From IMG/VR virus record IMGVR_UViG_3300013103_000007: a stretch of 64,000 bases of DNA; one strand, 5' to 3'. Under the pieces are notes generated by a model that ran no database searches, was not told the DNA's origin, and saw only the letters and a program-made list of their open reading frames with translations. A program made the translations under genes and the position numbers. Positions 2,941-51,645 of this stretch are shown here, one piece after another. The stretch comes from an uncultured virus (IMG/VR IMGVR_UViG_3300013103_000007). Its lineage: Duplodnaviria; Heunggongvirae; Uroviricota; Caudoviricetes. Position 1 is the first letter of the stretch. Every line of letters begins with the position of its first letter.

Positions 2941-3014
2941 TGGGGTATCGTCCAACGGCAGGACACGAGCTTTTGGAGTTCGCTATCGGGGTTCGAATCC
3001 CTGTACCCCATCCA
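2941..3014 (+). tRNA. tRNA-Gln (TTG)
   Basis: TGGGGTA/TACCCCA acceptor, TTTTGGA anticodon loop, GGTTCGAATCC, CCA end. Confidence 0.92.
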
Positions 3015-3107: not shown

Positions 3108-3183
3108 TGCGGAGTGATGCAGAGGTCAGCAGTTTGGGTTCATAACCCAAAAGTCGTCGGTTCGAATCCGGCCTCCGCTACCA
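3108..3183 (+). tRNA. tRNA-Met (CAT), initiator-like
   Basis: TTCATAA loop, GGG/CCC anticodon stem, unpaired 1:72 position, GGTTCGAATCC, CCA. Confidence 0.92.
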
Positions 3184-8059: not shown

Positions 8060-8282
8060 TAAAAAGATTTGAATAAATAGATAGAACATAAGGTAAAGTT
8101 ATATATCAATTGGATTTTTTATGGTTGATATTCACCGAGGGTTGTTTATATAAATTGAATCAAAGGTTCATAAATAATTTATAAAAAGTTTATTTAAACT
8201 TCAATCCTTATATAATTGTTAATTTTTAAATATCAAACGAAATTGTTATTACAATTTTGCCTTATGTATGGAGGAATGGTAA

Positions 8283-9444
8283 AATGAAAAAAGTAAAATA
8301 TACGGATCTTTTGAAGCAAAGTTTGCAAGAAAGTGCTGATACTTCACAAACATCAGATGTTATTGGCCCGATGCTTGAGCCGATTTTGGGTTTTAATGGT
8401 GATGGTGAATTGAATACCTTTAAATCAGCAAGTAATGTTTTACAGAAATATTACTTTGAGCAAGATGCTGAAAAACCGATTTTGACAAATACCTCAAAAG
8501 ATGATAATGAAAATCAGAAAGAGGCGGATCAGGTTAAGAAGCAGATTGAAAAAGTTATGAAAAGCGATGGTGAATCTGACGACAAAGATATAAATGCTCA
8601 TTTGAAAGAAGATTCTGATTCCATTGAGGAAAATATTCTTAACTTGGAAAATATTCTTCTCGGCGAACAGGAAGATGATAAAACTGCTGATAAAGATAAA
8701 GATGCTGACAAAGATGCTGACAAAGATGCTGACAAAGATGCTGACAAAGATGCTGACAAAGATGCTGACAAAGATAAAGATGCTGGCAAAGATAAAGATG
8801 CTGACAAAGATGCTGAAGATCTCGATGTTGATAAAGCTAAAATTTCTGAAAATGAAAAAATTTCAGCTTTGTTGAAAAGTAGTGATGACCAAGCTTTGTT
8901 TGAATCCCTGAGCAAATTGCTGGGTGAAGATGATGTTCAAGAAATTACTGAGGGTGACAGAATTCGTGATTTGCTAAAAACATCTGCTAAACAAGGTATT
9001 AAGCAAATTTTGGAGTCGGACTCTGATTCAGCTACACAGGATGGCGAAGTCGAATTGGCTGAAAATTCTGTAATGGAATGGCTGATTATGGAAATGGAAG
9101 ATATGGATGATAATTCTGATCTTCTTGGCGAAGGCGCCCCTGTTGGTGGCCCATTGGCAACTGCGGAAGATGATGAAAAAGATGATCTGTCGGAAGGTGC
9201 TGCTGACCTTGATATGGATAGTTTGTCAAAATTGCTTGAGCAAGATGACGATGCCACAGAAAAAGTGGATGCAGAAGTTGATGCTGCTGATGCTGATGAT
9301 GATGCCGGCGAAGATTCTGGTGATGATTTAACCGAAAGTATTGACCTCGAATCATTGTTGGAAGAAGATGATAATTCTGAAGAAAATATCCTAGGCAAAT
9401 TGGATAAAATCAAAAGTATTAGCTCAGACGATCTTCGCGTATAA
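8283..9444 (+). CDS. Highly acidic protein, probable prohead core/scaffold
   Basis: D/E-rich, many L/I-x-E motifs, upstream of portal; ATG 8283 follows GGAGG (ORF track start 8257). Confidence 0.55.
8686..8817 (+). repeat. 12-bp coding tandem repeat GATGCTGACAAA (DADK)n
   Basis: Directly visible tandem copies with GATAAA insertions. Confidence 0.9.
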
Positions 9445-17044: not shown

Positions 17045-19174
17045 TTAATCGAATAATAAAACAGAACCCATTTTATTATTTTTATTGTTTGCTTTAATTG
17101 CATTCTCAGATGCCTTAGGATTTTTCAAACCTTTAGCACTGCATTCTGGACAAATTGAAAATTTATTCATCGCTCGCAAATTTATTTCAAATTCCTTTTT
17201 ACAATAATAACAATTAACCACCTTATCCAATTTTACTTTCACACCCGCATCTTTACAAGTCTGACATAAAACTCTATTTACCCCAACAAATGCAGAATGT
17301 TCAGTTTCAGTACCACAATTTACACATGGATCAATTCTCATACCAGATGGAACTTGAATTGATTCAGTGATTCGAATTTTCTTTTTTTCATCTTCAATAT
17401 CACTTTCGGTTATAAGAGAATCTTTTTTCATTAAAAATCTGGTTTGTCCACAATCATAATATTTACCAGTGTTGGCTTTTATATTTTTCATATGACGTGA
17501 ATAAATATGGCCATTGTAATCCACCAGATAATATTCCGGATCACCATTTCCCACAAAAGTAAAACCTAATTGGATGTAAAGATTATCAGATGACCACGAT
17601 CGATCATCCATGGCATGTATTTTATCCCATGTATATTGTTCTTTAAAATGGGTTAATAAATTTGCATATAATTGAACCGACTCATAAAATCCGAATTTTG
17701 TAGCAACCCGATGTAATTCCCAACGATTCTCATTATATTTTTTGTTTGTTTTTATTGATTCTTTGAATGTCATAATAGCAACCAATTCATTATCAGGCGT
17801 AAATGCTCCTAAAGCAACATTTGAATAATCAACGCCCTCTAAATGATATTGTCGTAGAAAATTATTTTTATCATTTTTAGTTATTACTTTTATCAAACAT
17901 TCAGATTCATTAATAATAACATTATCAAACCCCAGCGTTCGTTTCAAAGTTTCTTTTATAATTGGTTTTATATTTATCCATTGATAATCAGTAATGTGAA
18001 TTAATTTAATACCCATATTTTCACATGCCATTGTTTTTTTAACATGCTTATGTTTATCAAATGATTTATCAACATAATGATAAATACTGCTGTGAGAATA
18101 TATACCATTAAATTCAATTGCAATACCTAATGATGGGATATAAACATCCAATTCTTTTGGCGCAATTTTCTTTCGATCGTTTTGAATCACTTCTATTTCG
18201 GGAAATAATTCTTTTATAAATTCAACAATTTCTAATTCACCCATTGATTTTCCTCCTTGTCTTGGATAACATTTTGGACATCTGTAACCGTGCCCACCGT
18301 TTGATAGTGAATCATTTTGGATTTGAAACCACGATGTATTGAATATTTCACCGCACGTTAAACATTTAAAATTGTGGCGATGATGGGTACCTAAATATTT
18401 ATCATCAACCAATTTGACATTATAGTTTGGCATTTTTTCAAATATATCAATTGTAGCTTTTTTACGTTCTCGAGTTTTTGCTATTTCAATCATTTCATTG
18501 GCTCTTTTTTCGCCTATTCTTGTACTTAATGGCATTCCTTTATATGGATATGGTTTAGCGTTTTCTTTTCTTGAAGAAATTGAATTATTGTGAGATTGTT
18601 GAGTGTTTAGATCTATCCGAGCTTTTGTACGACCTTCATCTGTCTGTCTCCAATTATCAACACCATATTTTTCTTGGGTTGTTTGTTTTGTTTTTTGTTT
18701 TAATAATTGGCTTGCAAAACCAACTCCACCATATCGTTCATTATTGGTTTTTATTTTTGCTTCTTTTACACCAGGAACATGGGCAGCATTTATTACACCT
18801 TCACCATATTTCTTTTGCAATTTTTTTGTTCGTCTTTCATTTGCTTGATTTTTTCTTCGCCCATCAGGATTTTCCAACCCTTTATTTAAACAACTTTGAC
18901 AAGCTTGATTATTAGCTTCATTGTTTCTAACTTCCATATTACAATTACAATAACAACATTGAATTATTTTTATTTTATTCGCAGTGTTACCTCTTTTGTT
19001 TCCGGCTTTTCTTTTATCCATTGTATTTTTACATACTTCAATTGTTTCTGGAAAATCTTTTCTTAAATCAGCTAATGTTTTATTATGCTTTTTTAAATGT
19101 TTATAATTAATAGTTGGGAATTCCTCATTGCAATATGGACATATTACATAATCAATATTTAAAATTCTGGCCAT
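17045..19174 (-). CDS. Multi-zinc-finger homing-endonuclease-like protein (Vsr/PD-(D/E)XK-like nuclease)
   Basis: Several CxxC pairs, KYG/RYG repeats, SMGE...ELDVYIPSLGIAIEFNGIYSH nuclease motif, downstream WELHR...DRSWS...LYIQLGF domain; lone antisense gene beside capsid. Confidence 0.7.
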   Translation of the reverse strand: MARILNIDYVICPYCNEEFPTINYKHLKKHNKTLADLRKDFPETIEVCKNTMDKRKAGNKRGNTANKIKIIQCCYCNCNMEVRNNEANNQACQSCLNKGLENPDGRRKNQANERRTKKLQKKYGEGVINAAHVPGVKEAKIKTNNERYGGVGFASQLLKQKTKQTTQEKYGVDNWRQTDEGRTKARIDLNTQQSHNNSISSRKENAKPYPYKGMPLSTRIGEKRANEMIEIAKTRERKKATIDIFEKMPNYNVKLVDDKYLGTHHRHNFKCLTCGEIFNTSWFQIQNDSLSNGGHGYRCPKCYPRQGGKSMGELEIVEFIKELFPEIEVIQNDRKKIAPKELDVYIPSLGIAIEFNGIYSHSSIYHYVDKSFDKHKHVKKTMACENMGIKLIHITDYQWINIKPIIKETLKRTLGFDNVIINESECLIKVITKNDKNNFLRQYHLEGVDYSNVALGAFTPDNELVAIMTFKESIKTNKKYNENRWELHRVATKFGFYESVQLYANLLTHFKEQYTWDKIHAMDDRSWSSDNLYIQLGFTFVGNGDPEYYLVDYNGHIYSRHMKNIKANTGKYYDCGQTRFLMKKDSLITESDIEDEKKKIRITESIQVPSGMRIDPCVNCGTETEHSAFVGVNRVLCQTCKDAGVKVKLDKVVNCYYCKKEFEINLRAMNKFSICPECSAKGLKNPKASENAIKANNKNNKMGSVLLFD

Positions 19175-27781: not shown

Positions 27782-29375
27782 AAGTTCATTAATGTGATGT
27801 GGGTTTCTTATCTGACCTGATTCATTTTTTTCAAATGGGTTTCTAGGTGTGGATGATTCATTTCATAGGTCTGGGTTTCTACAACATCGTGATTCATTTT
27901 CCTCTCCTGGGTTTCTTTGCCCCCTTGATTCATTATTTTTGAGTGGGTTTCTTGTTTTTTATGATTCATTATCTTTGAGTGGGTTTCTTGTTTTTTATGA
28001 TTCATTTTTTTCAAATGGGTTTCTAGGTGTTGATGATTCATTATGGCAACATGGGTTCCTGGTAAACCTTGATTCATTGTTCTTGTCTGGGTTTCTATAT
28101 GTTGATGATTCATTTCCAACTTCTGGGTTTCTCTTTGATTCTGATTTATTTTACCCTGGCGGGTTTCTGAATTTTTCCGATACATTATTGTTTCATGGAT
28201 TTCTTGCCGTTTGTAATACAATAGATATTCATGGGTTTCTTGATTTTCGTGATTCATTTCCCTTCTGTGGGTTTCTGCAACATTTAGATTCATTTCACCA
28301 GTTTGGGTTTCTAAATCGGCATGATTCATTTTTACGTCATGGGCTTCTAATATCTAATGATACATTCAATCTTATTGGGTTTCTAACTTGTCAAGATTCA
28401 CTTCTTCTTTGTGGGTTTCTAGGAGTTGATGATTCATTCTTTCTTATTGGGTTTCTGTCCGGTTATGATACATTGCCGGCCTGTGGGTTTCTTGATGGGT
28501 ATGATACATTGTTTTGCTATGGGTTTCTAGATGTTGCTGATACATTATTTCTTATTGGGTTTCTTTTTTTGTGGTGATTCATTGTATAGAAGAGGGTTTC
28601 TCGCCGGCTATGATACATTGTCCGTACATGGGTTTCTCGAGGATTATGATACATTTTCTCACGTAGGGTTTCTGTTGGGAAGTGACTCATTTATCCTTTG
28701 TGGATTTCTGCAATCTGATAATTCATTTCCAGCTCCTGGGTTTCTCTTGGATTCTGATTCATTTTCTTACATAGGGTTTCTATTCCATCTTGATTCATTA
28801 CAATTGCAAGGGTTTCTTCTATATTGTGATTCATTAAGATATTCTGGGTTTCTTTGACACGCTGATTCATTCTTTCTTATTGGGTTTCTACCCGGTTATG
28901 ATACACTGTTTGGCAATGGGTTTCTTGGTCTTGCTGATTCATTTCCCTTCAATGGGTTTCTTTTTTCTCCTGATTCACTTTTTCATTATGGGTTTCTAGG
29001 GGAAACTGATTCATTACAATGAACAGGGTTTCTTTAAGGTTGTGATTCATTGTCGATATCTGGATTTCTCATAGGTGTTGATTCACTTTTTGATGATGGG
29101 TTTCTATAAGTGGATGGTACATTTTTTCATGCTGGGTTTCTGGTTTATGGTGATTCATTAAAAGGTCTTGGTTTTCTTTTTTATCCTGATTCATTTGATG
29201 TTTCTGGGTTTCTAGGTCTTTGTGATTCACTTTTATATAATGGGTTTCTTATGATGCATGGTTCATTTATGAATCTTGGATTTCTAATTTTCATCGATTC
29301 ATTAAATTCCTGTGGGTTTCTTCAATCTGGAGATTCATTAACATTATGTGGGTTTCTTGTTCATTGTGATTAATT
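27782..29375 (-). repeat. TIGR-like array: 44 units of 36 nt with two alternating 9-nt repeats and two 9-nt spacers (guide-RNA array)
   Basis: Plus strand [TGATTCATT-N9-TGGGTTTCT-N9]n; minus strand AATGAATCA-N9-AGAAACCCA-N9. First TGGGTTTCT at 27800, last at 29349 (43x36+1). Confidence 0.92.
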
Positions 29376-29409
29376 GGGTGCGTTAAAATAAATTCTTTTA
29401 ACGCACCCA
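29375..29409. other. 14-bp perfect hairpin between the Tas-like gene and the array
   Basis: TGGGTGCGTTAAAA-7 nt-TTTTAACGCACCCA. Confidence 0.75.
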
Positions 29410-29421
29410 CCCAAAATCAAA

Positions 29422-30495
29422 TTAATGCTTTAAACCAAGCTTTGCCTCGTGGTATGGTTTTGTAACAGGAAGCCCTTCCAACGTTCTTTGGGCAATCCAT
29501 AAATCAGCCAGGAACAATTTGGCCGCATAGCGACGAGCCATCGCATGTTTATGCCCAATTTTTTTGTCCTTGTGCTCAGGCATCTTATCATACCGCTCAC
29601 GCATTGCATAATATGCCAGATTGTATTTATCAGGGTTATCCTTTGCCTTCAAGAAACCGCCTGCAAGAACCCCTAACAATTTGCTTTTGACAAATGGGTT
29701 CATGGTAACAGATTTTTTGAAATTTATATTTTCATTTTTGTCCACATATCTTTCAATGATAAGATGGTTATCACGGATGCTGTCGCCTTTTCCGTCGATA
29801 TCAGTTCTGACACCAACCCCACAATATCTCCAATATGCTGAGATATGTTTGGCGACATACGGATCAAGCTTGGCGATAAATACGGCAGCCATGGATGGCC
29901 CACACCCTTTCACATGCTGGAGGAAATGATGAAAGATTGGGTAATCTTTCACGTAAGTTTTGATTTTCTTACCCATTTCAATTTCCGCTTTTCTGTGTTG
30001 GACGTACGTATCAACCATTGTCCATTCATATGCGGTGGCAATAACACCTTCACGTTTAATTTCAAAATGTTTTTGAATCTGCCGGTTTGTGACCAACTCT
30101 TCCGAAAACAAATTGTATTCACCAACGATTTTGTTTATCAACTTGTTATCTTTTTCAGACTGCTTCTGGTTTTCAAAATCACCAACACGAAGCCTGAAAT
30201 TTCCAACAATTCGATTACCCGTCCGAATCCGCATATCTTGTGAATCATAAAACGTAGAAACCAACATCTTCAACTGTCCCTGATTTTGAATGTATTTTTC
30301 ATGCTGCTCAGAGACGTATATCTTCTGCGGAATATCAACTGTATCCCTGATGGGTGTCCTTCCCTCCAAGATTGCTTTTTTCATGGCGTCCGTGATCTTT
30401 GGAGCCAGTTTTCGCTCATTGGGATTCTGAAGTGCACCAACGATACTTTCAAATACATCAGTTCCAGCAGTTTGTGCTTCTTGTGCAATACTCAT
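29422..30495 (-). CDS. Nop/IS110-RNA-binding-domain protein, TIGR-associated (TasA-like), about 357 aa
   Basis: Coiled-coil FYDSQDMRIRTGNR, then FLQHVKGCGPSMAAVFIA...HISAYWRYCGVG...HAMARRYAAKLFLADLW, resembling the IS110 C-terminal/Nop domain; no RuvC or HNH motif seen; AAGGAG RBS before ATG 30495 (ORF track start 30564); adjacent to the array. Confidence 0.85.
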   Translation of the reverse strand: MSIAQEAQTAGTDVFESIVGALQNPNERKLAPKITDAMKKAILEGRTPIRDTVDIPQKIYVSEQHEKYIQNQGQLKMLVSTFYDSQDMRIRTGNRIVGNFRLRVGDFENQKQSEKDNKLINKIVGEYNLFSEELVTNRQIQKHFEIKREGVIATAYEWTMVDTYVQHRKAEIEMGKKIKTYVKDYPIFHHFLQHVKGCGPSMAAVFIAKLDPYVAKHISAYWRYCGVGVRTDIDGKGDSIRDNHLIIERYVDKNENINFKKSVTMNPFVKSKLLGVLAGGFLKAKDNPDKYNLAYYAMRERYDKMPEHKDKKIGHKHAMARRYAAKLFLADLWIAQRTLEGLPVTKPYHEAKLGLKH

Positions 30496-30681: not shown

Positions 30682-31113
30682 TCATAATATACCTCGTCTT
30701 GTAAAATCAGACTTGTTAAAAATTAATTTATGGTTTCTTTCCCACCCTTGAACTAATTTCCCATCAACCCCAATTTCACATAAATCAAAATGGATACATG
30801 TGAATAATTCTTGGGAATTTGTAGGTGGACCCAATGGTGGTTTGAAACACCCATGTTTCAATGGGGTATGAATAATTGCCCTAGCTGGATATTTGGGTTC
30901 GTTTAGTATATTAAGAACTCTATCAAAATCCATAGTTGTATTGGTTGAATTCCCATAATGTTTAAGAAGTGTATGGTATCGCTCCTTTAATATTTCAAGA
31001 TCCATAAATAAATATCTTCTGCTTTTATACATCTTATAACAATATACAGATATGGATAAAGATAGGATTACACCCCATATAAGACATATTATGATTATCA
31101 ATTCGATATTCAT
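30682..31113 (-). CDS. Hypothetical protein with N-terminal TM helix
   Basis: Hydrophobic N-terminus. Confidence 0.6.
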   Translation of the reverse strand: MNIELIIIICLIWGVILSLSISVYCYKMYKSRRYLFMDLEILKERYHTLLKHYGNSTNTTMDFDRVLNILNEPKYPARAIIHTPLKHGCFKPPLGPPTNSQELFTCIHFDLCEIGVDGKLVQGWERNHKLIFNKSDFTRRGIL

Positions 31114-32090
31114 TTTTTTGTCTTTTTCTTTTTTGTAGCTTGTATAGGAGCGGTTCGCTGTCGAATATGGTTAAAAGCCAATTCTATGGAATATTTATCA
31201 TCATCCCAATTCAATGTTGAAGTCGACGAAATTGAAAATTGCCCTTCGACTGCATCATAATACATTGTAAATTGACCATCATTACCCATATAAAATTTCT
31301 CCCAATCTTTATTTTCAATTAGGAAATATTTTTTTACATCCAATTGTTCAATGGCCAGGTTGTCAAATGAAATGGTTGGCAATTTTGAAGAATCGCTCCG
31401 ACTTAAAACTTTCCAAAATTTTTTAGAGATTGTTTCAATATCATCATATATATTTGGGTTGTGAACATCGATATAATCTCGACCCCGACCTATATTTTTA
31501 TAACCAAGGAGAAGTATTTTTTTGTAATATTTTGATACGTCCATAATTAAATTAATATCATTTATACCAACAATCATATGAGCAACGACGTTTGATATAT
31601 CATCTAAACCAATTGGAAAGGGTGTAGAATCAATACTAATGCCGACGCCATATATTAACTTGTCATTAATGAGATAATTCAGTTGGTCGCGAAATCTTAA
31701 GGTTGGGTGGAGGTGTCTCATATTCATTGTAATGCTTGGAATAAACTCCAACATTTTGCACGCGTGTAAAAATGACACTAAATCTGGGTGAGACATCGGA
31801 TTACCACCACCAATCGCCAATTCAGTTCCAGCTGGTAATTGTTTCAATACCTGTAATGTCTTTTTCAAATTAGCATATTTGCCATTTTGATTTGAACCTT
31901 CATGGCAATATTTACACCCGAGATCACAATAATTTGTAATCTTTAAATCAATTGACTCAGGGAATTTTGGAGTTAAATCTTTGATGGAAGTCCCATTTTT
32001 TGATGATCTGACTTTGGTACCATTTTTATAAATGGTGATTGTATAATTACCATTTTCATGAGTTGTTAATTCATCATTGATGGTTAGCAT
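31110..32090 (-). CDS. Radical SAM protein
   Basis: CDLGCKYC and GGGNP motifs. Confidence 0.88.
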   Translation of the reverse strand: MLTINDELTTHENGNYTITIYKNGTKVRSSKNGTSIKDLTPKFPESIDLKITNYCDLGCKYCHEGSNQNGKYANLKKTLQVLKQLPAGTELAIGGGNPMSHPDLVSFLHACKMLEFIPSITMNMRHLHPTLRFRDQLNYLINDKLIYGVGISIDSTPFPIGLDDISNVVAHMIVGINDINLIMDVSKYYKKILLLGYKNIGRGRDYIDVHNPNIYDDIETISKKFWKVLSRSDSSKLPTISFDNLAIEQLDVKKYFLIENKDWEKFYMGNDGQFTMYYDAVEGQFSISSTSTLNWDDDKYSIELAFNHIRQRTAPIQATKKKKTKK

Positions 32091-39884: not shown

Positions 39885-40988
39885 ATGGCAATTTTATTCG
39901 TAGACGGGTTTGACCATTATCAAACATCTGATATAAAATATAAATGGGATAATATGGATAGCATGGACCCATTGGATACTTATTTTTGGGTTGATAATAC
40001 TTCTCCGAGAACTGGTGGTCAGCAATATATGAGATTATCAAACCGTTCAAATGGTGGTTCAACAACATTTGTTGGGTCAGAAATTAAAAAATTATTACCG
40101 GTTGAATCCCAAACACTAGTTACAGGATTTGCATTTAATATTGTTGAATTTAATGGGAATTTATTTGAGCTGGTTTTGAAAAATGCTAATGCTCAGGTAA
40201 TTGTAAAATACAGGTTTATTAAAAATGCAAATTTTGATAAATTTGGTGTGCAAGTTGTTGACCATACAGACACTGTGATTGGAGTTACCTCAGATGCAAT
40301 TTTTGATGATAATGTTTGGTATTATATGGAAACAAAAACATCTGTAAATAATACAACTGGTTCATGTCAAGTTCGTATAAATGGAGCAACGCATTTACAG
40401 ATAGATAATATTGATACGGATCCAAGCAACGGAGTACACCCAACAGTTAATTATATTGAAATGGTGACTTGTACAACACCAGCAACCGCAGTAACAACTT
40501 TTATTGATGATCTTTATTTGTTAAATAATATTGGATTGTCAAATAATGATTTCCTTGGAGATGTATATATCCAAGCGATACTCCCAAATGGGGCAGGGGC
40601 ACACTCGGATTGGTCACCTTCATCTGGAGCAAATTATGAATGCGTTGACGATATTGATATTGATAATGATGTTACTTTCGTAAGCACCACCACGGATAAT
40701 GCAATTGATACCTATGAGTTTCAAAATGTAACTGCAATTACCGGGTCTACAATTAAGGCAGTTGTCGCCAATATTGTGGCCAAAAAAGATGGTGCTGCTA
40801 TTCGCCATATTGCCCCCATTGCACGTTTGAATAACCTGGAGTATGAAGGTGATAATATTGATTTGGTTGATTCCTATAAATTGCATCAGCATATATGGGA
40901 GAATAAACCCAGTGACGGTACATCATGGGAAACAACTGATATTGACAATGGGCAGTTCGGGGTTAAATTGACTCCGAATACACCTTAA
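39885..40988 (+). CDS. Virion-associated lectin-like protein, paralog 1
   Basis: MAILFVDGFD...IDDLY...NNDFLGD...NYECV shared by three tandem genes. Confidence 0.6.
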   Translation: MAILFVDGFDHYQTSDIKYKWDNMDSMDPLDTYFWVDNTSPRTGGQQYMRLSNRSNGGSTTFVGSEIKKLLPVESQTLVTGFAFNIVEFNGNLFELVLKNANAQVIVKYRFIKNANFDKFGVQVVDHTDTVIGVTSDAIFDDNVWYYMETKTSVNNTTGSCQVRINGATHLQIDNIDTDPSNGVHPTVNYIEMVTCTTPATAVTTFIDDLYLLNNIGLSNNDFLGDVYIQAILPNGAGAHSDWSPSSGANYECVDDIDIDNDVTFVSTTTDNAIDTYEFQNVTAITGSTIKAVVANIVAKKDGAAIRHIAPIARLNNLEYEGDNIDLVDSYKLHQHIWENKPSDGTSWETTDIDNGQFGVKLTPNTP

Positions 40989-41008
40989 AAATATTAAAGG
41001 GGTGTATA

Positions 41009-42094
41009 ATGGCTTTACTTTTTATTGAAGGGTTTGATGAATTTGAATTGGGTGCTCCAATCTCACAATTGCAGTATAAATGGAATTTTACAAGCAATGG
41101 TTATTTAAGTATTCATGACACGGACGCCCGACCCGAGGCTGGTAAATATATACGTTTTGATTCTGGTCATTATTCAGATAATTATGTTAAAAAATTATTC
41201 AATCCAATTGTAGAAAATTCCAAGTTTATATTTGGGTTTTCTATGAAAATTAATACAAGCAGCGGCGAAGGCGGCATATGGTCCTTAATTAATTCATTTG
41301 AATCATATTTTGTAAAATTAAATTATTCATGGGATTCTTTAACAACACGATGGAGATTAAATGCTTCATTAAGAAATGATAGCAATTCGACGATATCTAC
41401 ATTTTATTCTGATTATTTTTTAAAAGACCATGAGTGGTTTACAATTGAAGGTAAAATTGAATATGTTGAAACCGTGCATGATATTGATTATGGCAATTTT
41501 GAAATATTATGCAATGGTGAATCTATCATAAATGAAACCAATGTTGAAATAGCAACTATGGATTTAAAATGGGTGCATATTACATCCAGAAGTGGTAATT
41601 ACACCCAACAAGTCGATGTTGACGATATATATATTTGTGATGGAGCTGGTACAACTAACAATGATTATCTCGGCGAAATTCATGTTCGCGCATTAAAACC
41701 ATCTTCAGATGGGATGACAAATGATTTTACACCTGTTGGTGAAACTGAAAACTATAATTGTGTTAATGCATTAAATATTGATACTGACGCATATGTAAAA
41801 TCAAATGTTCTTGATAATGTTGAATTATTTAATTTTGATGACTTGCCAATTACAGATACTGAAGTGTTGGGAGTTTTTGCCTCAACTGATTGTATTAAAG
41901 AAGGGTTTGGATATAGGCGTGTTAAAACTGTAATTAATAATGGAACAACGAATATTATTGATACAAATGAACATACTTTGGCAAATGGTATTCGTAGATA
42001 TGAAAATAAATTTGAAATTAATCCTTTCACAGGGAATCCATTTACAATTTCTGAGTTAAATAATATGCAATTTGGAATAACTATTTCATTGTAG
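41009..42094 (+). CDS. Virion-associated lectin-like protein, paralog 2
   Basis: MALLFIEGFD...VDDIY...NNDYLGE...NYNCV. Confidence 0.6.
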   Translation: MALLFIEGFDEFELGAPISQLQYKWNFTSNGYLSIHDTDARPEAGKYIRFDSGHYSDNYVKKLFNPIVENSKFIFGFSMKINTSSGEGGIWSLINSFESYFVKLNYSWDSLTTRWRLNASLRNDSNSTISTFYSDYFLKDHEWFTIEGKIEYVETVHDIDYGNFEILCNGESIINETNVEIATMDLKWVHITSRSGNYTQQVDVDDIYICDGAGTTNNDYLGEIHVRALKPSSDGMTNDFTPVGETENYNCVNALNIDTDAYVKSNVLDNVELFNFDDLPITDTEVLGVFASTDCIKEGFGYRRVKTVINNGTTNIIDTNEHTLANGIRRYENKFEINPFTGNPFTISELNNMQFGITISL

Positions 42095-42103
42095 GAGATA
42101 ATT

Positions 42104-43180
42104 ATGTCGTTGGTTTTTGTAGATGGATTTAATCAGCATGAATTAAGTAATGATAAATCTGATATTGAATATAAATGGTCTTATGCATCTGGGGGATCTG
42201 TTAAAAATGATACACCTAGAAATAATGATCCATTAAATAAATATTTTGAAATGCCGTATCAATATAGCAATACCCACTACTTAAGAAAATCATTCCCAAC
42301 GCCATTTATTGATGGAATTATAATGGGGTGGTGTGCAAAAAATCATGGGTATCAAATTCAGATTGATATTGGAGTTGACAATGATTCTAATCAATTGCTG
42401 ACTTTTAATTTCCCTTATGACAGTAATATAAAATTGCACCGTGTTAGAGCAAAATATTTAAATTCATCTGGCACAATTACAACAATTGAAACAAATGATT
42501 ATATAATTGATAATACAATATGGGAATATTTGGAATTTAAAATTGTATATACCAATACAAATGATGCAAATCTTGTATTTAGGTTAAATGGGCAAGATTT
42601 ATTAAATGTATTACTACATGACATTCAGGATTGTAGAAATAATATAAATAACATACAATTCAAAAATAGAGTCGACGCACGAGATTCAATTGATTATGGA
42701 ATAGATGATTTTTATGTATGCAATTTGCAAGGAACTGATAATAATGATTTCTTGGGTGATATTGCCATACAAAATATAAGACCAAATGCCGCAGGTTTAA
42801 TATCTAATTTTACACCAGTTGGGGAAACCTATAATTATGAATGTGTTAATTCAGATGTAAATGATGAACTGACATACATTGAATCTGATGTTATTAATAA
42901 TACAGAATTATTCAATTTGGATGATATTACAGCCTCGTCACAAGCTAAAATTTTAGGTGTTGTAAATAATTTATATTGTAAGAAAACTGATGCTGGTAAT
43001 AGGATACTTGGGCATGTAATAAGCAATGGTACAAATACACATTATGATGCCGGAGATATTATATTAGATTCTGGCATTAAAATTTATGATAAGCCATGGG
43101 ATATAAACCCATTAACATCACAACCATTTACGATAAGCGATGTTAATTCTTTACAATGCGGACTGACTATTAAATCATAA
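42104..43180 (+). CDS. Virion-associated lectin-like protein, paralog 3
   Basis: MSLVFVDGFN...IDDFY...NNDFLGD...NYECV. Confidence 0.6.
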   Translation: MSLVFVDGFNQHELSNDKSDIEYKWSYASGGSVKNDTPRNNDPLNKYFEMPYQYSNTHYLRKSFPTPFIDGIIMGWCAKNHGYQIQIDIGVDNDSNQLLTFNFPYDSNIKLHRVRAKYLNSSGTITTIETNDYIIDNTIWEYLEFKIVYTNTNDANLVFRLNGQDLLNVLLHDIQDCRNNINNIQFKNRVDARDSIDYGIDDFYVCNLQGTDNNDFLGDIAIQNIRPNAAGLISNFTPVGETYNYECVNSDVNDELTYIESDVINNTELFNLDDITASSQAKILGVVNNLYCKKTDAGNRILGHVISNGTNTHYDAGDIILDSGIKIYDKPWDINPLTSQPFTISDVNSLQCGLTIKS

Positions 43181-43183
43181 ATT

Positions 43184-44275
43184 ATGGCTATTAATATATC
43201 ATCTGAAAATATTGACGTAATTACCTCAAATGCGCGCGTTGCTCTTACGTCTGAAAATATTGACGTAATTACCTCAAATGCAAGGATTTTTTTATCATCT
43301 GAAAATATTGATGTAATTAAAACCGATGATATTAATAATGCTAAATTAATAAATGAAACAGCAGAAGTTGCAACAAACCCAATAGAAGAAGCATATTCTA
43401 ATATTATAAATGAAACAATTGAAATTGCAACAGAACATGGAACCGAAGCATATTCTAATATTATAAATGAAACAATTGAAATTGCAACAGAACATGGAGC
43501 TGAAGCATACAGTGGTATTATAAATGAAACAGTTGAAGTATTAACAAGAATCGGGGTAATTGAAAATCATGTAACGCAATATGCGATTGAATATGTACAA
43601 CCCGGCAATGCTCCGGCTGATTACACCCAATATGCAATCGAAGTTATAAATGTCCATAACCCAACTCCATCAATGACCCAATATGCAAATGAAATTGTTT
43701 CAATGGGAAATGCACCAGCTACAACAACCCAATATGCAAATGAAATTGTTTCAATGGGAAATGCACCAGCTACAACAACCCAGATAATATTGGAAATCAT
43801 TGCATCTAATTCAGTTAGAATATCACAAATTGCATATGAGGTTATCTTTAGCCCATCATCAAATCGTATAACACAAAATGCTATTGAAATTATATTACAA
43901 TTAGGTGTTGCAAGAAATACCACAAATATTCTTGAAGTTGTACAAAGTCTAACCCATCTTCCAATAGTAACAAGTGAAGTTATAGAATTAGTGAAATCGT
44001 ATGAAAAACCACATATTTCACAGCAAACAATTGAGATTGTAAATAGTGTCAAGGCAATAAGCGGATTTACATATGACGCAAATACAGGTGTTCCAGTTAG
44101 AGCATATGTATATATTTATTTTGAAGGCACATCTCAATTATTATCCAAAATTGAATCTGATGAAATAACAGGTCATTTTTATTGTTTGATTGAAGAAGGA
44201 AACAATTATAATGTTATTGGTGTGCCGTTTTTGAATGGTATTACACTGGATATAAAATATGATATAATTGGTTGA
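43184..44275 (+). CDS. Repeat-built fibre/shaft-like protein
   Basis: Successive SENIDVI, IINETxEIAT and TQYAxEI repeats. Confidence 0.6.
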   Translation: MAINISSENIDVITSNARVALTSENIDVITSNARIFLSSENIDVIKTDDINNAKLINETAEVATNPIEEAYSNIINETIEIATEHGTEAYSNIINETIEIATEHGAEAYSGIINETVEVLTRIGVIENHVTQYAIEYVQPGNAPADYTQYAIEVINVHNPTPSMTQYANEIVSMGNAPATTTQYANEIVSMGNAPATTTQIILEIIASNSVRISQIAYEVIFSPSSNRITQNAIEIILQLGVARNTTNILEVVQSLTHLPIVTSEVIELVKSYEKPHISQQTIEIVNSVKAISGFTYDANTGVPVRAYVYIYFEGTSQLLSKIESDEITGHFYCLIEEGNNYNVIGVPFLNGITLDIKYDIIG

Positions 44276-44362: not shown

Positions 44363-46165
44363 ATGGCCGTAACAATTAAATTTAAAAGGGGTGCATTCGC
44401 ATCTCTTCCCGTCCTCGGTGATGGGGAACCTGGTTTTTGTTCTGATTCCAAGCAGATGTTTATTGGGCAAGGCGGAACAAACTATGAAATCGTAACCTCA
44501 GGTTCAACTGTTCTGGATGCTCGGTATTATACAGAAACTGAGCTGGGCGATAATGCTTCAAATGCAACCGCTGGTGCAAAACTTATTGGTACATTTGATG
44601 AATATGCAAATGCAACCGCAAGTAATGTTCAGGATGTATTGAAAGCATTTGACACTGCTATTTCCAATGCTACATCTTCTGGCGAAAACAATACTGCTTC
44701 AAATCAGGGTGCTGCTGGCGTTGGCGTATTTAAACAGAAAACTGGTATTGATCTTGAATTTAAAAATATCAATACTGCTGATACACATGTTACAGTTACT
44801 GACGATGGCACAAATAACGAAATTGATATTTCGACTGATGCAACTGATGCAAATACAGCAAGCACAATTGTTGCTCGGGATGCTTCTGGTAATTTTTCAG
44901 CAAGTATGGTTACATCAGATGTAACTGGTGATCTTACCGGTAATGCTGATACAGCTACAACTCTTGCTACAAGTCGTTCATTTTCAATTACTGGCGATGG
45001 CACAGCACCTGTTGTTGCATTTAATGGTTCTGGTAATGTTGAACTTTCTTTGACTGTTGATAAAGTTGATGGTAAAGATGTTGATGATAACGAAACTTCT
45101 ACAGATTATCTCTGGACTGCTGGTAAGATTATTGATTATCTTGAAAGCAAAGAAAATAGTCTGGATTGGCAGGATAGTGTTGTTGACAAAGATGCTGTTA
45201 CGCCTCCGGGATCTCCAGCAACTGGTTCACGTTATATTGTTGGTGGTAATGAAGCAGCAGTTACATCGGTTACAGCTGGCTCCAAAACAATTGTAACTAC
45301 CGCTGATATTTCTTCCTCGATCGCAACCGGTGATACAATTAAATATCGCGATGGTCTTGGTTATACTGTGCAGCTTACAGTTGCTTCAGTTTCAGGTACC
45401 AGTATTGTTGTTAATGAAGTTGTTCTTACAAAAACTGGTGGTACCCTTTATCATTCAGATGCTGCCTGGTCACCTCTTGGTCCGGATGAAATTGCTCAGT
45501 GGGATGGTTCTTCATGGACAAATATTTCCGCTGGTTCTGGCGCTCCGAATGAAGGTTGGGCTGTATGGGTTGAAGATGAAGACAAGAACTATGTATTCAA
45601 TGGCGACCAATGGGTAACTTTTGGTTCAACTTCAACACATGGTGGTCTTTCAGGTTTGCAGGGTGGCACAACTGATGAATATTATCATCTGACAAACACC
45701 CAACATGTAACACTTACTGGCTGGGTTGGAACTCAGGGTGCTGCTACAGTTTTGGCTGCTCCGACTGGCGGTGCTGGTTCAGCTTCCTTCCGTAATCTGG
45801 TTGCTGGCGATTTGCCGACTGCTACTTCCTCAGCTCTTGGTGTTGCCTCATTTAGCGATGAGAACTTCACAGTTTCAGCCGGTGCAGTTACGATCCTTGC
45901 AGACGGTATTGATAATACCCATATTGATTTTGGCACTGGCGCAGGTCAGGTTAATACTGATGTATTGACCGAAGGTTCCACCAATCTGTATTATACAGAT
46001 GCTCGGGCTCAGTCTGCAATTTCGGTTGCTAATTCTGATTCTGTAAGCCTGACTTATTCAGGCGGCCAGATTTCTGCTGATGTAAATGTTGACAATACAA
46101 CTATCAAAATTGATGCAAGTAATGATTATATTTATGTTGATGCTGTTGATGGTGGTTCTTGGTAA
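44363..46165 (+). CDS. Major tail fibre-like protein
   Basis: N-terminal IKFKRG...LGDGEPGFCSD (Mtd-N-like), TIVARDASGNFSA, LTGNADTATTL, EGSTNLYYT motifs; high-expression codon bias. Confidence 0.75.
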   Translation: MAVTIKFKRGAFASLPVLGDGEPGFCSDSKQMFIGQGGTNYEIVTSGSTVLDARYYTETELGDNASNATAGAKLIGTFDEYANATASNVQDVLKAFDTAISNATSSGENNTASNQGAAGVGVFKQKTGIDLEFKNINTADTHVTVTDDGTNNEIDISTDATDANTASTIVARDASGNFSASMVTSDVTGDLTGNADTATTLATSRSFSITGDGTAPVVAFNGSGNVELSLTVDKVDGKDVDDNETSTDYLWTAGKIIDYLESKENSLDWQDSVVDKDAVTPPGSPATGSRYIVGGNEAAVTSVTAGSKTIVTTADISSSIATGDTIKYRDGLGYTVQLTVASVSGTSIVVNEVVLTKTGGTLYHSDAAWSPLGPDEIAQWDGSSWTNISAGSGAPNEGWAVWVEDEDKNYVFNGDQWVTFGSTSTHGGLSGLQGGTTDEYYHLTNTQHVTLTGWVGTQGAATVLAAPTGGAGSASFRNLVAGDLPTATSSALGVASFSDENFTVSAGAVTILADGIDNTHIDFGTGAGQVNTDVLTEGSTNLYYTDARAQSAISVANSDSVSLTYSGGQISADVNVDNTTIKIDASNDYIYVDAVDGGSW

Positions 46166-46252: not shown

Positions 46253-46774
46253 ATGGCACTTATTCAAATACGAAGAGGTACCCAAGCGAACATGCCTTCC
46301 TTAGGGGCAGGTGAACCCGGTTTTTGTACAGATACCCATAAGTTATATATTGGGTACAATGGTACGAATTATGAAATCGGGAAATCTGAAACTGTCCAGA
46401 AGGAAATATACCAAGTTTCACATGGTTTTGATAAAGATTTTATTTATCATAATGGTACAAATTGGGTTAAAGCTTTATGTGATGGTCCAGAACATTCGGC
46501 TACCCATTTTGGTGTTTCGGTTGATACAAATAATTTTATTTCAGTTACTATTGGCGATGTCGATGTAACAGGAATGGTTGATGATGCTTCACAGGCTTTA
46601 ACTGCTGGTGAATATTATTTTCTTTCACAAAATACTGCTGGTAAGGTGATGTCTACCGTGCCTACATCTGGTATTTCACAAAGTGTATTGAAAGTAAATG
46701 CCACAAATGAAGCGACAATTATCATATCAGAACCTGTTGAATCCAGCGATGTAGTCGATGGTGGTACCTGGTAA
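46253..46774 (+). CDS. Short fibre protein with Mtd-N-like N-terminus
   Basis: IQIRRG...LGAGEPGFCTD...LYIG; ends DGGTW. Confidence 0.7.
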   Translation: MALIQIRRGTQANMPSLGAGEPGFCTDTHKLYIGYNGTNYEIGKSETVQKEIYQVSHGFDKDFIYHNGTNWVKALCDGPEHSATHFGVSVDTNNFISVTIGDVDVTGMVDDASQALTAGEYYFLSQNTAGKVMSTVPTSGISQSVLKVNATNEATIIISEPVESSDVVDGGTW

Positions 46775-48233: not shown

Positions 48234-49415
48234 ATGGTCGATAAAAATATTGTTAAATATATTCAAGAAAATGCGCCGACATTTAATAATGGAACTCCGG
48301 CAGAAGATATGATATATGACGGAGATTTAAATTATAGTAATGGTCTTCAATATTCTGGACAATCCGGTGATGGCGATGATACGATATTGGATGGAGATTT
48401 GTGGTATAATACTTTAAATGATAATCTCTATCAATATAATAAAAGTACATCAATTTGGGATGTCTTAATTGAATCTGATCCTGTGCCTGCACCATTAGGT
48501 GTTGATTATGCATATTTGGCATCAGGAACTATTGATGGTGAATATTATGCTACGTCTATTGATCGAATTACATTCCCATTTGATTCAGGAACAGGAATAT
48601 TGGTAGGAAATTTAAATAATAATATTCGTAGACCTGCGGCTTTTAATTCATCTAATTTTGGATTTACATCTGGCGGTGATTTAAAAGGCGGCACTACAGT
48701 TTCAAATGTTGAACGATGTGAATTTGCATTTGATTCTGGCACTGCAGTAATGACAAGCACAACTTCTCCAAGCGCATACGGAGCAGGTTCCAATTCTTCA
48801 ATACATGGCTTTGTATTAGGTGGGCATGTTGAAGATTTAACTGCGGCCAGAAGTAATATTGTAAGAATTACATTTCCTTTTGATTCTGGATATGCAGATC
48901 ATACTGGATTTTTAGCCCATGAAAAATCTCTTGGCACTGGATTAACATCTCAATGGCACGCATATTCAATTGGTGGTTGGGATAATGCTGGATATAAATC
49001 TTATATTGATAGGATTGAATACCCATTTGATTCTGGAAACGCCTTATTAGCTGGTCGTTTAGGACATGGTGAAAGAGGTTGTGGCTCAGGGTGCAATTCT
49101 TCTTCAACCGGATATTATACAGGTGGTGTATTAGCTACAAGCCAAGTTGAAAAGATAAGTTTTCCTTTTGGTGATGGTTTATCATCTTCAGCAGGAATGT
49201 TGACAAAAAAATCGTATAGTCAAGGTGGCGCAAATTCAACAAATTATGGATATGCTATTTCCGGAGCAATTGATGGAGGAACTCATATTTCTTCAGTTGA
49301 CAGATTAGCATTTCCATTTGATTCCGGCTCCTCAATTGAAACTGGGAGTATATCATGCACACGGTATGAAGGTGCTTCATTTGATGGAACTGATTTTGTA
49401 GCTTTATTTGTATAA
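48234..49415 (+). CDS. Kelch-like beta-propeller protein (FPFDSG repeats), paralog 1
   Basis: Six repeats GY..GG...IDRIxFPFDSG...NSS. Confidence 0.7.
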   Translation: MVDKNIVKYIQENAPTFNNGTPAEDMIYDGDLNYSNGLQYSGQSGDGDDTILDGDLWYNTLNDNLYQYNKSTSIWDVLIESDPVPAPLGVDYAYLASGTIDGEYYATSIDRITFPFDSGTGILVGNLNNNIRRPAAFNSSNFGFTSGGDLKGGTTVSNVERCEFAFDSGTAVMTSTTSPSAYGAGSNSSIHGFVLGGHVEDLTAARSNIVRITFPFDSGYADHTGFLAHEKSLGTGLTSQWHAYSIGGWDNAGYKSYIDRIEYPFDSGNALLAGRLGHGERGCGSGCNSSSTGYYTGGVLATSQVEKISFPFGDGLSSSAGMLTKKSYSQGGANSTNYGYAISGAIDGGTHISSVDRLAFPFDSGSSIETGSISCTRYEGASFDGTDFVALFV

Positions 49416-49429
49416 AAGGAAAATATAAA

Positions 49430-50527
49430 ATGGCTATTGTAGTTAATAATTTAAGATCAGGAGCTAAATTTACTCAATCTGTTCCTCCATTAAATCCAAA
49501 ACAGAATGATGTTTGGTATAATATAGTATTTCAAACATATTTTATTTATAATATTGATATTTGGGAAACATTATTTACAGATTCAGCCCCGATGCCTGGG
49601 CCTGGTAGTGAATATAGTTATACATGCGGGGGCTATTCAACACCAACTTCTACAATAAGTAATATACAACGTATGCATTTTCCGTTTAATTCTGGGGTTT
49701 TTGAAACCAAAGGCAATTTAGTAATAGACACTTGTGAAGCAGTTGGGTGTAATTCATCCCAAACTGGCTATATTATGAACGGGCATGAGTCAACTGTAAC
49801 TTCATCAAATATTGAAAAAATATCATTCCCATTTGATTCTGGGGATTCTGTTATATCCGGGAATACCACAATTAGTTCTTACCTTCGAGCCGGGTTTAAT
49901 TCATCCCGCTATGGTTATTCGAGTGGTGGTTTTCAAAGTGGATATAAATCATTAATTGAAAGATTTGCATTCCCATTTGATTCTGGAACGGCTGTAAATG
50001 TTGGTAATTTATCATCAAGTAAATATATAGGGTGTGGGTATAATTCTTCTCAACATGGGTTTGCACCGGGTGGTATGATGTATGATGGTAATCACTATTA
50101 TTATTCATCTATTGATCGTATTGAATTTCCGTTTGATTCAGGAACTGCTACAAAGCAGGGAAATTTAAATTCTGTAAAATATCTAGCGTCATGTTGTAAT
50201 TCTTCAACTGATGGGTTTTTATTCAGCGGTAGAGATAGTTCAGCGTATAGACAAGCGGATATAGAAAAAACTACTTTTCCGTTTGATTCTGGAAATACTG
50301 CTGTAGTATCTTACCACAGAAGCACCGTACAATCAGCAGCGTCTAATTCTACAATACACGGATTTATAGCAGGAGGTTATGACCAAGCTGATTATGAGGT
50401 TTCAATAGTTCAAAGAATTACATTTCCATTTGACTCCGGTGTGGTAGAAGAAACAGGAACTTTAGTTTCAAATATGAATCAAGTTACAGGCATTGATGGA
50501 ACTGATTTTTCAACATTGTTTGTATAA
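49430..50527 (+). CDS. Kelch-like beta-propeller protein, paralog 2
   Basis: Six FPFDSG repeats. Confidence 0.7.
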   Translation: MAIVVNNLRSGAKFTQSVPPLNPKQNDVWYNIVFQTYFIYNIDIWETLFTDSAPMPGPGSEYSYTCGGYSTPTSTISNIQRMHFPFNSGVFETKGNLVIDTCEAVGCNSSQTGYIMNGHESTVTSSNIEKISFPFDSGDSVISGNTTISSYLRAGFNSSRYGYSSGGFQSGYKSLIERFAFPFDSGTAVNVGNLSSSKYIGCGYNSSQHGFAPGGMMYDGNHYYYSSIDRIEFPFDSGTATKQGNLNSVKYLASCCNSSTDGFLFSGRDSSAYRQADIEKTTFPFDSGNTAVVSYHRSTVQSAASNSTIHGFIAGGYDQADYEVSIVQRITFPFDSGVVEETGTLVSNMNQVTGIDGTDFSTLFV

Positions 50528-50547
50528 AAGAAAAAGGAAAATATAAA

Positions 50548-51645
50548 ATGGCTATTGTAGTTAATAATTTAAGATCAGGAGCAAAATTCACCCAAGCTAT
50601 TCCTCCATTAAATCCAAAACAGAATGATGTTTGGTATGATATATCTGCAAAATTATATAAAGTATATAACTCCGGTGAATGGGAATTAATATTTAATAAA
50701 ACAGCTTCTGGATCACCTGGTGGTAATTATGGGTATATTTTAGGGGGTTATTCTGGAGATCATATATCAACAATTGACAGAATGCAATTTCCATTTGATT
50801 CTGGCACCACCATACAAGTTGGATATATTTCATCGAACCGAAATGCTTTTTATTGCTGTAATTCAACAAATTATGCATATACGGTTGGCGGCGATGTTGG
50901 AACTACTGGAGTGTACGTATCAATTATTGATCGAATTGAATTTCCGTTTGATTCAGGAACTGCAACCAATGTTGGAACAATTAGCCATAATGCTAGCCGA
51001 GCAACTGCGTGTAATTCTTCAAATATTGGTTATGCAATGGGTGGGCGAATTGCCTTAACAAGTGACATATCCGGAATTGATGAATTAATATTTCCGTTTG
51101 ATTCTGGAAATGCAACAGCAACATCAAATTTAGGGCGAAGTACAAGCGGAGCTTCTGGGTGTAATTCATCAACATTTGGATATGCAATGGGTGGGCATCA
51201 TCATATTGATGTCAATTCTAGTATATATTTATCTGCGATTAGTAGACTTTCATTTCCATTTGATTCAGCAGTTGCTTCTAATGATACCCGTTTATCTTCA
51301 AAACGATTTTGTTCTGCTTCTTGTAATTCATCTACATTTGGTTATGCAATGGGCGGGCGTGAAGATTCCAATTTTTTAAGCACGATTGACAAAATTGAAT
51401 TCCCATTTGATTCAGGAACTGCAACAAGCGTTGGTAATTTAACTGCATTGTACGGCAATGGTTATGAAAATGGCTGTAATTCAACAATACATGGTTATTC
51501 TCTGGGATTAAATAGTAGTTCTTCAATTGATAGGATTGAATTTCCATTTGATTCAGGCACAGCAGTAAATGTTGGGTGTTTGTCCGGGTTAAAAAGATAT
51601 GGTGGTGGAACTGATGGAACTGATTTTTCTTCAATGTTTGTATAA
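50548..51645 (+). CDS. Kelch-like beta-propeller protein, paralog 3
   Basis: Six FPFDSG repeats; 5' end nearly identical to paralog 2. Confidence 0.7.
   Translation: MAIVVNNLRSGAKFTQAIPPLNPKQNDVWYDISAKLYKVYNSGEWELIFNKTASGSPGGNYGYILGGYSGDHISTIDRMQFPFDSGTTIQVGYISSNRNAFYCCNSTNYAYTVGGDVGTTGVYVSIIDRIEFPFDSGTATNVGTISHNASRATACNSSNIGYAMGGRIALTSDISGIDELIFPFDSGNATATSNLGRSTSGASGCNSSTFGYAMGGHHHIDVNSSIYLSAISRLSFPFDSAVASNDTRLSSKRFCSASCNSSTFGYAMGGREDSNFLSTIDKIEFPFDSGTATSVGNLTALYGNGYENGCNSTIHGYSLGLNSSSSIDRIEFPFDSGTAVNVGCLSGLKRYGGGTDGTDFSSMFV

Follow-up and report, generated by a model that had tools for sequence, protein, structure and literature searches.

Introduction

TIGR-Tas systems (TIGR, tandem interspaced guide RNA), as set out in the available text of Faure et al. 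(Science 2025, PMC12045711), join arrays of 9-nucleotide (nt) repeats and spacers to a Nop-domain Tas gene on the same strand; both repeat types carry box C/D ends, with an A-rich loop and an extra covarying pair in the edge, phages serve as hosts, and adaptation genes are lacking. The emergence and expansion of the arrays are called an enigma there, and expansion is again named as an open question in the accessible part of a preprint from September 2026 (10.64898/2026.09.09.750476). Here, we report a locus that shares these features, located in a 64,000-nt stretch (the window) of the uncultured virus record IMG/VR IMGVR_UViG_3300013103_000007 and consisting of a dual-repeat array beside a putative tas gene, with several nearly identical pairs of spacers. 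The array is probably the TIGR array of a TasA-type system in an uncultured T4-like phage, in which the near-identical pairs would be copies of whole units, diverged by point mutation. The locus itself, apart from its unusual length, is a typical member of an already published system; its main interest is the evolution of the array, a concrete and testable partial answer to how TIGR arrays expand. No statement of whole-unit, non-polar duplication within arrays with hitch-hiking loop variants was found in the TIGR literature, a search that did not cover preprint supplements or TIGRSafari.

The locus differs from the TIGR-Tas systems described in PMC12045711 (in its available text) by the length of its array (44 units versus "most often 5 to 15"), by an N-terminal extension of ~75 amino acids (aa) on its Tas protein, and by the lack of a terminator called after the array; arrays of 49, 38, and 33 units also occur in viral contigs with the same repeat family. 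SpTasH from Salicola phage CGphi29 (PDB 9W03/9W04), as far as it is treated in the accessible text of PMC13421893, shares the Nop-domain fold (Foldseek E 1.5e-8), and its pre-tigRNA processing residues (Y289/H296) lie at the site of a C-terminal Tyr...His motif in the window protein. The window protein has no HNH domain, and its Tyr and His are spaced by 9 residues rather than 7.

CRISPR arrays also carry short guides that are separated by repeats and processed to unit RNAs, and within-array spacer duplicates occur in them too. As defined here, a CRISPR-Cas locus has one repeat of ~23 to 47 nt, spacers of like size, and cas genes including Cas1/Cas2, and the window array does not fit: two 9-nt repeats alternate, guides are split (9+9 nt), a scan of 61 window open reading frames (ORFs) yielded no Cas family, and an Rfam scan returned three tRNAs only, with no CRISPR-DR match at the array. 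ToxI of type III toxin-antitoxin systems likewise forms tandem 36-nt RNA units, cut to monomers by the partner protein, and phages carry mimics of it; in the window, by contrast, every unit is variable over half its length, and a Nop-domain Tas takes the place of a ToxN-type endoribonuclease as partner. ToxI-like antitoxin repeats were dropped as a reading, together with iteron or centromere arrays and an RNA sponge, once the neighboring gene had been identified as Tas.

Array, repeats, and Tas protein

On the plus strand, the 36-bp unit reads TGGGTTTCT-N9-TGATTCATT-N9, with variable blocks termed s1 (after TGGGTTTCT) and s2 (after TGATTCATT). The 44 TGGGTTTCT-type and 44 TGATTCATT-type repeats, spanning 27800 to 29375, follow each other in 18-nt steps all along the array, bar one step of 19 nt, and a single repeat is badly decayed (TAATACAAT, at 28214). 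This is the TIGR layout of two alternating 9-nt repeats (8 to 12 nt in the criterion used), ~9-nt spacers, and a ~36-nt unit. A TIGR array is further expected to start on an edge repeat that is 5'-truncated and to end on one that is 3'-truncated, followed by a rho-independent terminator. Both terminal edges of the window array are degenerate in the expected halves (Table 1), and the TGATTAAT-type variant of the first edge repeat also stands at the end of the arrays of two related loci (L005 and L012). The terminator scan called none past the 3' end of the array, where the ribosome-binding site and start codon (27764) of the next gene directly follow the last edge repeat. All genes flanking the array are on the minus strand.

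According to the available texts of PMC12045711 and the preprint (10.64898/2026.09.09.750476), edge repeats are marked by one more base pair, which covariation maintains, and loop repeats by an A-rich, unpaired middle. Repeats of both kinds should begin with box D and end with a CCA-like box C, the second box D base pairing with box C, and these motifs are expected to covary between the two repeat types. On the tas strand, both window repeats finish in CA, as expected of box C: the loop reads AG..CCA (G2-C7), and an A-U box D/C pair (A2-U7) is present in the edge, AA..UCA, whereas the TaTasR edge is UG..CCA. Throughout the repeat family, positions 2/7 were paired in 94% of 1650 edges (G-C 861, G.U 412, A-U 276, A.C 57) and in 96% of 1619 loops, while positions 3/6 were paired in 95% of the edges (C-G 1293, U-A 200, U.G 75, C.A 59) and in only 9% of the loops, which mostly had A.C and A.A there. 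All 45 window edges carry U3 with A6 or G6. Because pairing at 3/6 covaries in edges and loops are unpaired there, AATGAATCA is assigned as the edge repeat and AGAAACCCA as the loop repeat by the published criteria.

The preliminary description of this DNA had assigned the loop repeat and the edge, or processing, repeat in the same way, and the base-pair covariation agrees with it. Its eight repeat coordinates and four spacer pairs were exact in the sequence, and its count of 88 spacers was confirmed; the span it gave (27818 to 28898) lies inside the array, which is longer (27782 to 29375). The A-richness that it reported for spacers on the presumed RNA strand was borne out as well: minus-strand spacers are 40.4% A, 22.6% U, 18.7% C, and 18.3% G, and the rest of the window on that strand is 33.1% A and 33.7% U. 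RNA-strand spacers are purine-rich (59% in the window, 60% in the 152 other arrays introduced below), so a target would read 9 nt purine-rich and then 9 nt pyrimidine-rich.

The database copy of the window Tas has 357 aa. It matched the NCBIfam profile NF052498 (TIGR_Tas_endo, "TIGR-Tas system RNA-guided endonuclease") with E 2e-27, and phmmer aligned it to TasR (PDB 9mty, E 2.6e-12) and TasH (E 3.4e-5). An AlphaFold (AF2) model built from 30 homologues had a confidence score (pLDDT) of 80, and the ten best Foldseek matches to it were all TasH/TasR chains, followed by IS621 recombinase and archaeal Nop5. PHROGs labels the protein a transposase. Tyr348, which aligns with the catalytic Tyr289 of SpTasH, is invariant in the 30 homologues, and the C-terminal His357 is nearly so. 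The identification of the locus as TIGR rests on the 36-bp dual-repeat units, on this adjoining protein, as matched by profile, sequence, and fold, on its conserved Tyr and His, on the edge and loop pairing given above, and on the placement of tas at the related loci below.

Pfam returned no match for the window Tas, and no nuclease family was found in its N-terminal 110 aa even at E up to 10. The ~75-aa N-terminal extension, which has no family match, is shared with three relatives, and the N-terminal 60 residues are helical and of low confidence in the model; most homologues, including the nearest, are solo-Nop proteins of 280 to 300 aa. Since no nuclease family was found and the homologues are mainly solo-Nop proteins, the protein is filed as TasA-type, without a recognizable nuclease domain, with a novel nuclease fold in the extension as a possibility. 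TasA proteins are presented as RNA-guided transcriptional repressors in the accessible part of the September 2026 preprint (10.64898/2026.09.09.750476).

Five of seven related viral loci examined have a Tas-sized gene directly upstream of an array, on the strand that reads AATGAATCA/AGAAACCCA, and NCBIfam confirmed the Tas identity of two of them, above the cut-off of 100 bits (L005, 113 bits; L011, 117 bits). No Tas-sized gene was recognized beside the arrays of L002 and L007, and a Tas-protein search of viral contigs confirmed no relative. Four loci with the same array repeats (L003, L005, L009, and L012) encode an HNH-like N terminus, read by eye and not called by Pfam. A tasH-like gene at L005 and at L009 has arrays of these same repeats on both sides, ~1 kb apart.

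Copies of whole units

Spacer pairs joined across each repeat type were compared all against all within the window (903 unit pairs per join type), with 5,000 permutations that kept every spacer intact as a chance test. Across the loop repeat (TGGGTTTCT on the plus strand), three pairs agreed with at most 2 mismatches of 18 (permutation mean, 0.05) and four with at most 3 (mean, 0.19), counts that were reached in none of the 5,000 permutations. Across the edge repeat (TGATTCATT), no pair agreed at this level (mean, 0.18); one at ≤4 and three at ≤5 mismatches were inside the null, and two such weaker likenesses are 28412/28520 (4/18) and 28629/28737 (5/18). With four loop-joined and no edge-joined pairs, the linkage is therefore real and one-sided. 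Single spacers with ≤2 mismatches were also mostly of one class (s1-s1, 12/946; s2-s2, 15/946; s1-s2, 5/1936). Copies 4a and 4b (Table 1) are each followed by the minority edge form TGATACA...

Some spacers recur in the window mostly with unrelated partners: AGGTGTTGA-like s1 spacers are found in six units (loops at 27836, 28016, 28088, 28412, 28520, and 29097; span, 27836 to 29105) and CTTTCTTAT-like s2 spacers in four (28367 to 28375, 28439 to 28447, 28547 to 28555, and 28872 to 28880). The ten units closest to the array's 3' end (RNA sense; 27800 to 28141) have near-perfect repeats with one variant (28052) and contain two of the four copy pairs, the remainder of the array being more decayed; polarity of this kind was not seen in 52 other arrays.

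Two pattern scans of IMG/VR gave at least 156 loci, and 152 non-redundant arrays (3 to 49 loops each; window excluded) were taken from the matches listed with a parser that treats both repeat types symmetrically. In these arrays, 39 of 9944 loop-joined pairs agreed with at most 3 of 18 mismatches (from 24 of the 152 arrays; null, 4.8; standard deviation [SD], 2.1), against 12 of 9650 edge-joined pairs (from seven arrays; null, 5.2; SD, 2.2). When copies were scored as events, the window and the 152 arrays together gave 34 that were edge-bounded (32 of single units and 2 of double units), 6 that were loop-bounded, and 1 mixed (binomial P 4e-6 for 34 versus 6); without the four window events, the ratio was 30 to 6 (P 3.5e-5). 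A comparison with the arrays of related viral contigs, which the preliminary description had proposed, thus finds that whole-unit copying recurs.

The 39 loop-joined pairs and the 4 window pairs (43 copy pairs) were then compared in their repeats. The loop 9-mer was identical in 36 of the 43 (18.6 expected; reached in 0 of 2,000 simulations), and where a minority loop form was involved 10 of 17 pairs were identical; rare loop forms move along with the spacers. Each flanking edge was identical in 29 pairs (22 expected). Differences between copies comprised 36 transitions and 25 transversions, and mismatches were flat over the spacer, with no seed-like pattern. These are segmental DNA copies that take in the loop and extend into both edges, and not products of chance. 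For placing a breakpoint inside the edge repeat, per-position variant sharing was too sparse.

The divergence of the copies differed between the two kinds of join. With the window included, loop-joined pairs at 0, 1, 2, 3, and 4 mismatches numbered 13, 11, 7, 12, and 18 (null, 0.5, 0.5, 0.9, 3.2, and 10.3), versus 5, 4, 0, 3, and 12 edge-joined pairs (null, 0.4, 0.6, 1.0, 3.4, and 11.0). Graded divergence was thus confined to whole-unit copies, and from this distribution it follows that copies with loop junctions are visible only while fresh, whereas whole-unit copies persist and diverge. Because only the latter do so, we infer that selection on the intact spacer pair, the unit at work in tandem-spacer targeting, may filter the surviving copies. 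The same pattern provides evidence, drawn from sequence alone, for the edge-to-edge spacer pair as the natural functional unit.

Several of the proposals in the preliminary description can be judged on these results. Spacer similarity is not linked equally across the two repeat types, and its guide unit, spacer-AGAAACCCA-spacer bounded by AATGAATCA, agrees with linkage that is found only across AGAAACCCA. Unit duplication plus point mutation, as it proposed, is upheld by the pairs in the window and in the related arrays, by their shared loop variants, and by the 36:25 ratio of transitions to transversions. Duplication as the mode of array growth is a different matter: the duplication is real, while the detectable copies (~7% of units) do not establish it as the way in which arrays grow. 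The contrast drawn with Cas1/2-style acquisition goes further than its sole basis, which is that the 61 window ORFs scanned turned up no acquisition family (Cas1, Cas2, reverse transcriptase, or integrase), ~34 kb of the 97.7-kb contig lying outside the window. The idea that copies track escape variants of targets stays conjecture, as no target was found within the 64-kb window. That search covered both spacer geometries with gaps of 0 to 2, and its matches were not in excess of shuffled-partner controls: at ≤2 mismatches, there were 5 and 2 matches (control means, 2.85 and 2.1); at ≤3 mismatches, 30 and 35 (26.3 and 28.35); and none was below 2 mismatches. In hundreds of gigabases, an 18-mer is expected many times by chance alone (estimate).

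Weighing of the evidence

A number of observations weigh against the reading as whole-unit copies or narrow its reach. Copies are a minority: 8 of 44 window units belong to a near-copy pair, and in the 52 complete arrays a near-copy was detectable for ~7% of units. Only 4 of the 43 copy pairs are adjacent, and 39 are dispersed (2 to 20 units apart), a spread not expected from simple slippage or unequal crossing-over. The six loop-bounded events in related arrays are exceptions, and at L002/L010 (3821 to 3892, window orientation) a perfect tandem copy has loop-repeat junctions, with a chimeric spacer pair as the result. In the repeat family as a whole, 83 spacers (≤1 mismatch) recur singly beside unrelated neighbors, and only 59 of 143 near-identical spacers have a like partner across the loop (≤2 mismatches), so pair copying is not the whole story; such half-unit sharing could mean that halves reassort at loop repeats, that one half decays faster than the other, or that targets have a half-site in common. 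The comparison arrays come from metagenome assemblies, belong to a single repeat family, and were collected by the repeat motifs of this very array. As to the system itself, the window Tas scored 96.6 bits, just below the NF052498 cut-off, and tas is separated from the array by a strong hairpin (Table 1), with no terminator past the array. None of 200 shuffles folded as well as this hairpin, which has no U-tract after it and was not called by the terminator scan; since it intervenes and no terminator follows, a tas-array transcription unit is only presumed. A look for RNA runs that contain this stretch found none.

The alternative that survives best is that the bias toward whole units is mechanistic and not selective, units being cut at the edge and moved as physical entities; edge-specific recombination is one example, and a processed 36-nt unit that reinserts via a nucleic-acid intermediate is another. 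The youngest copies (≤1 mismatch) are already biased, with 24 loop-joined versus 9 edge-joined pairs (P 0.007); copies of single units land 1 to 20 units off and far outnumber those of double units; and the edge repeat is the Tas-dependent cleavage site in published systems, according to the available texts of PMC13421893 and 10.64898/2026.09.09.750476. Against such a mechanism, six loop-bounded copies exist, and some of the nine young edge-joined pairs derive from multi-unit blocks. Flanking-edge variants are shared without a clean stop at mid-edge, and there is no reverse transcriptase or recombinase beside the array. On balance, we regard a purely mechanistic origin of the bias as rather improbable.

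Separate acquisitions from one target site or its variants, by an unspecified adaptation route, would likewise give whole-unit identity bounded by edges and the dispersed positions seen in most pairs; 13 of the 43 pairs are identical, and the route of spacer gain in TIGR systems is stated to be unknown in the available texts of PMC12045711 and 10.64898/2026.09.09.750476. The repeats speak against this origin. Copy pairs share their loop variant far more often than random units of the array do, minority forms included, and flanking edge variants are common to them in excess of expectation. In addition, the 52 complete arrays lacked polarity both in the decay of repeats and in the placement of copies (copied share, 6 to 8% per fifth), a difference from the leader end of CRISPR arrays, and none of the acquisition genes sought was found among the window ORFs. 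The copies are thus unlikely to be separate captures of one target, and we would be surprised by such an origin.

A decayed or recoded gene for a protein of 12-residue repeats (GFLxxxDSFxxx on the plus strand or MNHxxxETHxxx on the minus strand) would account for the 36-bp period as 12 codons and for ORFs of 242 aa (plus) and 173 aa (minus) that cross parts of the array. The best plus-strand frame has 6 stops in 527 codons, a low count that is about what T-rich spacers would give (estimate). Stops are present in all six frames (plus, 51, 6, and 25; minus, 25, 13, and 66; per 527 to 528 codons), and because they mix TAA, TGA, and TAG, no single recoding opens any frame. Conservation covers entire 9-mers and shows no third-position wobble, the genes to either side occupy the strand opposite to the plus-strand frame, and the same repeats adjoin Tas genes in many contigs. 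A protein-coding repeat was rejected as very improbable, and the ORFs through the array were taken as by-products of its repeats.

Chance likeness among low-complexity, T-rich spacers, suggested by their biased composition and by several look-alikes that are T-runs, is negligible given the window permutations and the 160 of 23645 same-class versus 19 of 25101 cross-class spacer pairs that agree with ≤1 mismatch.

Proposed mechanism

With copying of whole units as the probable reading, the locus may work as follows, by analogy with published systems. The minus strand would be transcribed downstream of tas, and a Tas dimer would bind each unit through the box C/D ends of its edge and loop repeats and cut inside the edge repeat, using the conserved Tyr/His pair, to release a 36-nt tigRNA. 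Spacers A and B of each tigRNA would act jointly on an 18-bp DNA site, pairing with its opposite strands; since the window Tas has no recognizable nuclease domain, the outcome would likely be binding or repression rather than cleavage. Within the array, a whole unit (spacer B, loop, and spacer A, into both flanking edges) would be copied elsewhere in the same array, and the copies would then diverge by point mutation. Copies with loop-repeat junctions arise too but were not seen to persist. By the counts above, duplication with divergence was demonstrated as one source of new guides, for a minority of units.

A broader proposal is offered tentatively, as a possibility that we ourselves hold in some doubt: TIGR arrays may do without acquisition machinery and make their repertoire internally, whole units being pasted anywhere with junctions in the edge (the site of the Tas RNA cut), diverging by point mutation, reassorting halves at the loop, and being held by selection on the intact pair. 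If so, TIGR would be a guide library of mutation and selection rather than a store of captured DNA, and the 44 units here would show that process at one moment.

Features and phage context

Table 1. Positions of the array, its copy pairs, and other features in the window
Feature	Position	Strand	Details
TIGR dual-repeat array	27782-29375	minus	44 putative tigRNA units, 36 nt: edge AATGAATCA, spacer A (9), loop AGAAACCCA, spacer B (9)
First (5') edge repeat	29367-29375	minus	Variant AATTAATCA; consensus kept in 3' part only
Last (3') edge repeat	27782-27790	minus	Degenerate TGATTCATT-type; 5' part (AATGAAC) retained, 3' part gone
Sole 10-nt spacer (T-run)	28565-28574	minus	Single 1-nt phase break of the array
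Copy 1a, loop 27836	27827-27853	minus	Pair with 28007-28033; 1/18 spacer mismatches, 5 units apart
Copy 1b, loop 28016	28007-28033	minus	Pair with 27827-27853
Copy 2a, loop 27944	27935-27961	minus	Pair with 27971-27997; 1/18 mismatches, adjacent units
Copy 2b, loop 27980	27971-27997	minus	Pair with 27935-27961
Copy 3a, loop 28124	28115-28141	minus	Pair with 28728-28754; 3/18 mismatches, 17 units apart
Copy 3b, loop 28737	28728-28754	minus	Pair with 28115-28141
Copy 4a, loop 28448	28439-28465	minus	Pair with 28872-28898; 2/18 mismatches, 12 units apart
Copy 4b, loop 28881	28872-28898	minus	Pair with 28439-28465
Hairpin between tas stop codon and first edge repeat	29378-29410	minus	14-bp stem; RNA fold -24.3 kcal/mol, z -5.75
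tas gene, putative TasA-type (Nop domain)	29422-30495	minus	357 aa from ATG 30495; ORF open from TTG 30564 (380 aa)
tRNA genes (three)	1670-1752, 2941-3011, 3108-3180		Rfam

A minority edge form (TGATACATT on the plus strand) and its close variants make up 10 of the 45 edges (28178 to 28907 and 29115 to 29123). It is nearly always found mid-array, usually preceded by an s1 ending in TA, and amounts to an A-to-U change within the unpaired edge middle that leaves both base pairs intact. No hairpins between adjacent spacers were seen by eye, and the array had no blastn match in a set of 50,697 phage records. Two DNA runs (X1 and X2) yielded short pieces only (151 to 322 nt), all of them exact matches to the window and free of variants, indels, or joints.

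The phage encodes a T4-like portal, a prohead protease, and a Gp23-type capsid protein, the last only ~25% identical to the capsid proteins of cultured phages. Two proteins have an Mtd N-terminal domain (Pfam Mtd_N; major tropism determinant; 44363 to 46165 and 46253 to 46774), with no reverse transcriptase among the ORFs scanned. Runs of paralogous ~360-aa ORFs on the plus strand (39885 to 44275 and 48234 to 51645) look like diversified tail-fiber or receptor-binding genes, and one of these paralogues contains tandem repeats of 48, 57, and 51 bp (43197 to 43782). There are three radical-SAM proteins (31110 to 32090, minus; 56736 to 57953, plus; and 58931 to 60511, plus), and a perfect 12-bp repeat (6.5 copies plus 1.9; 8698 to 8816) lies within the ORF at 8257 to 9444. 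A 709-aa protein (17045 to 19174, minus), ~8.6 kb off the low-coordinate end of the array, matches PHROG homing/HNH endonuclease families.

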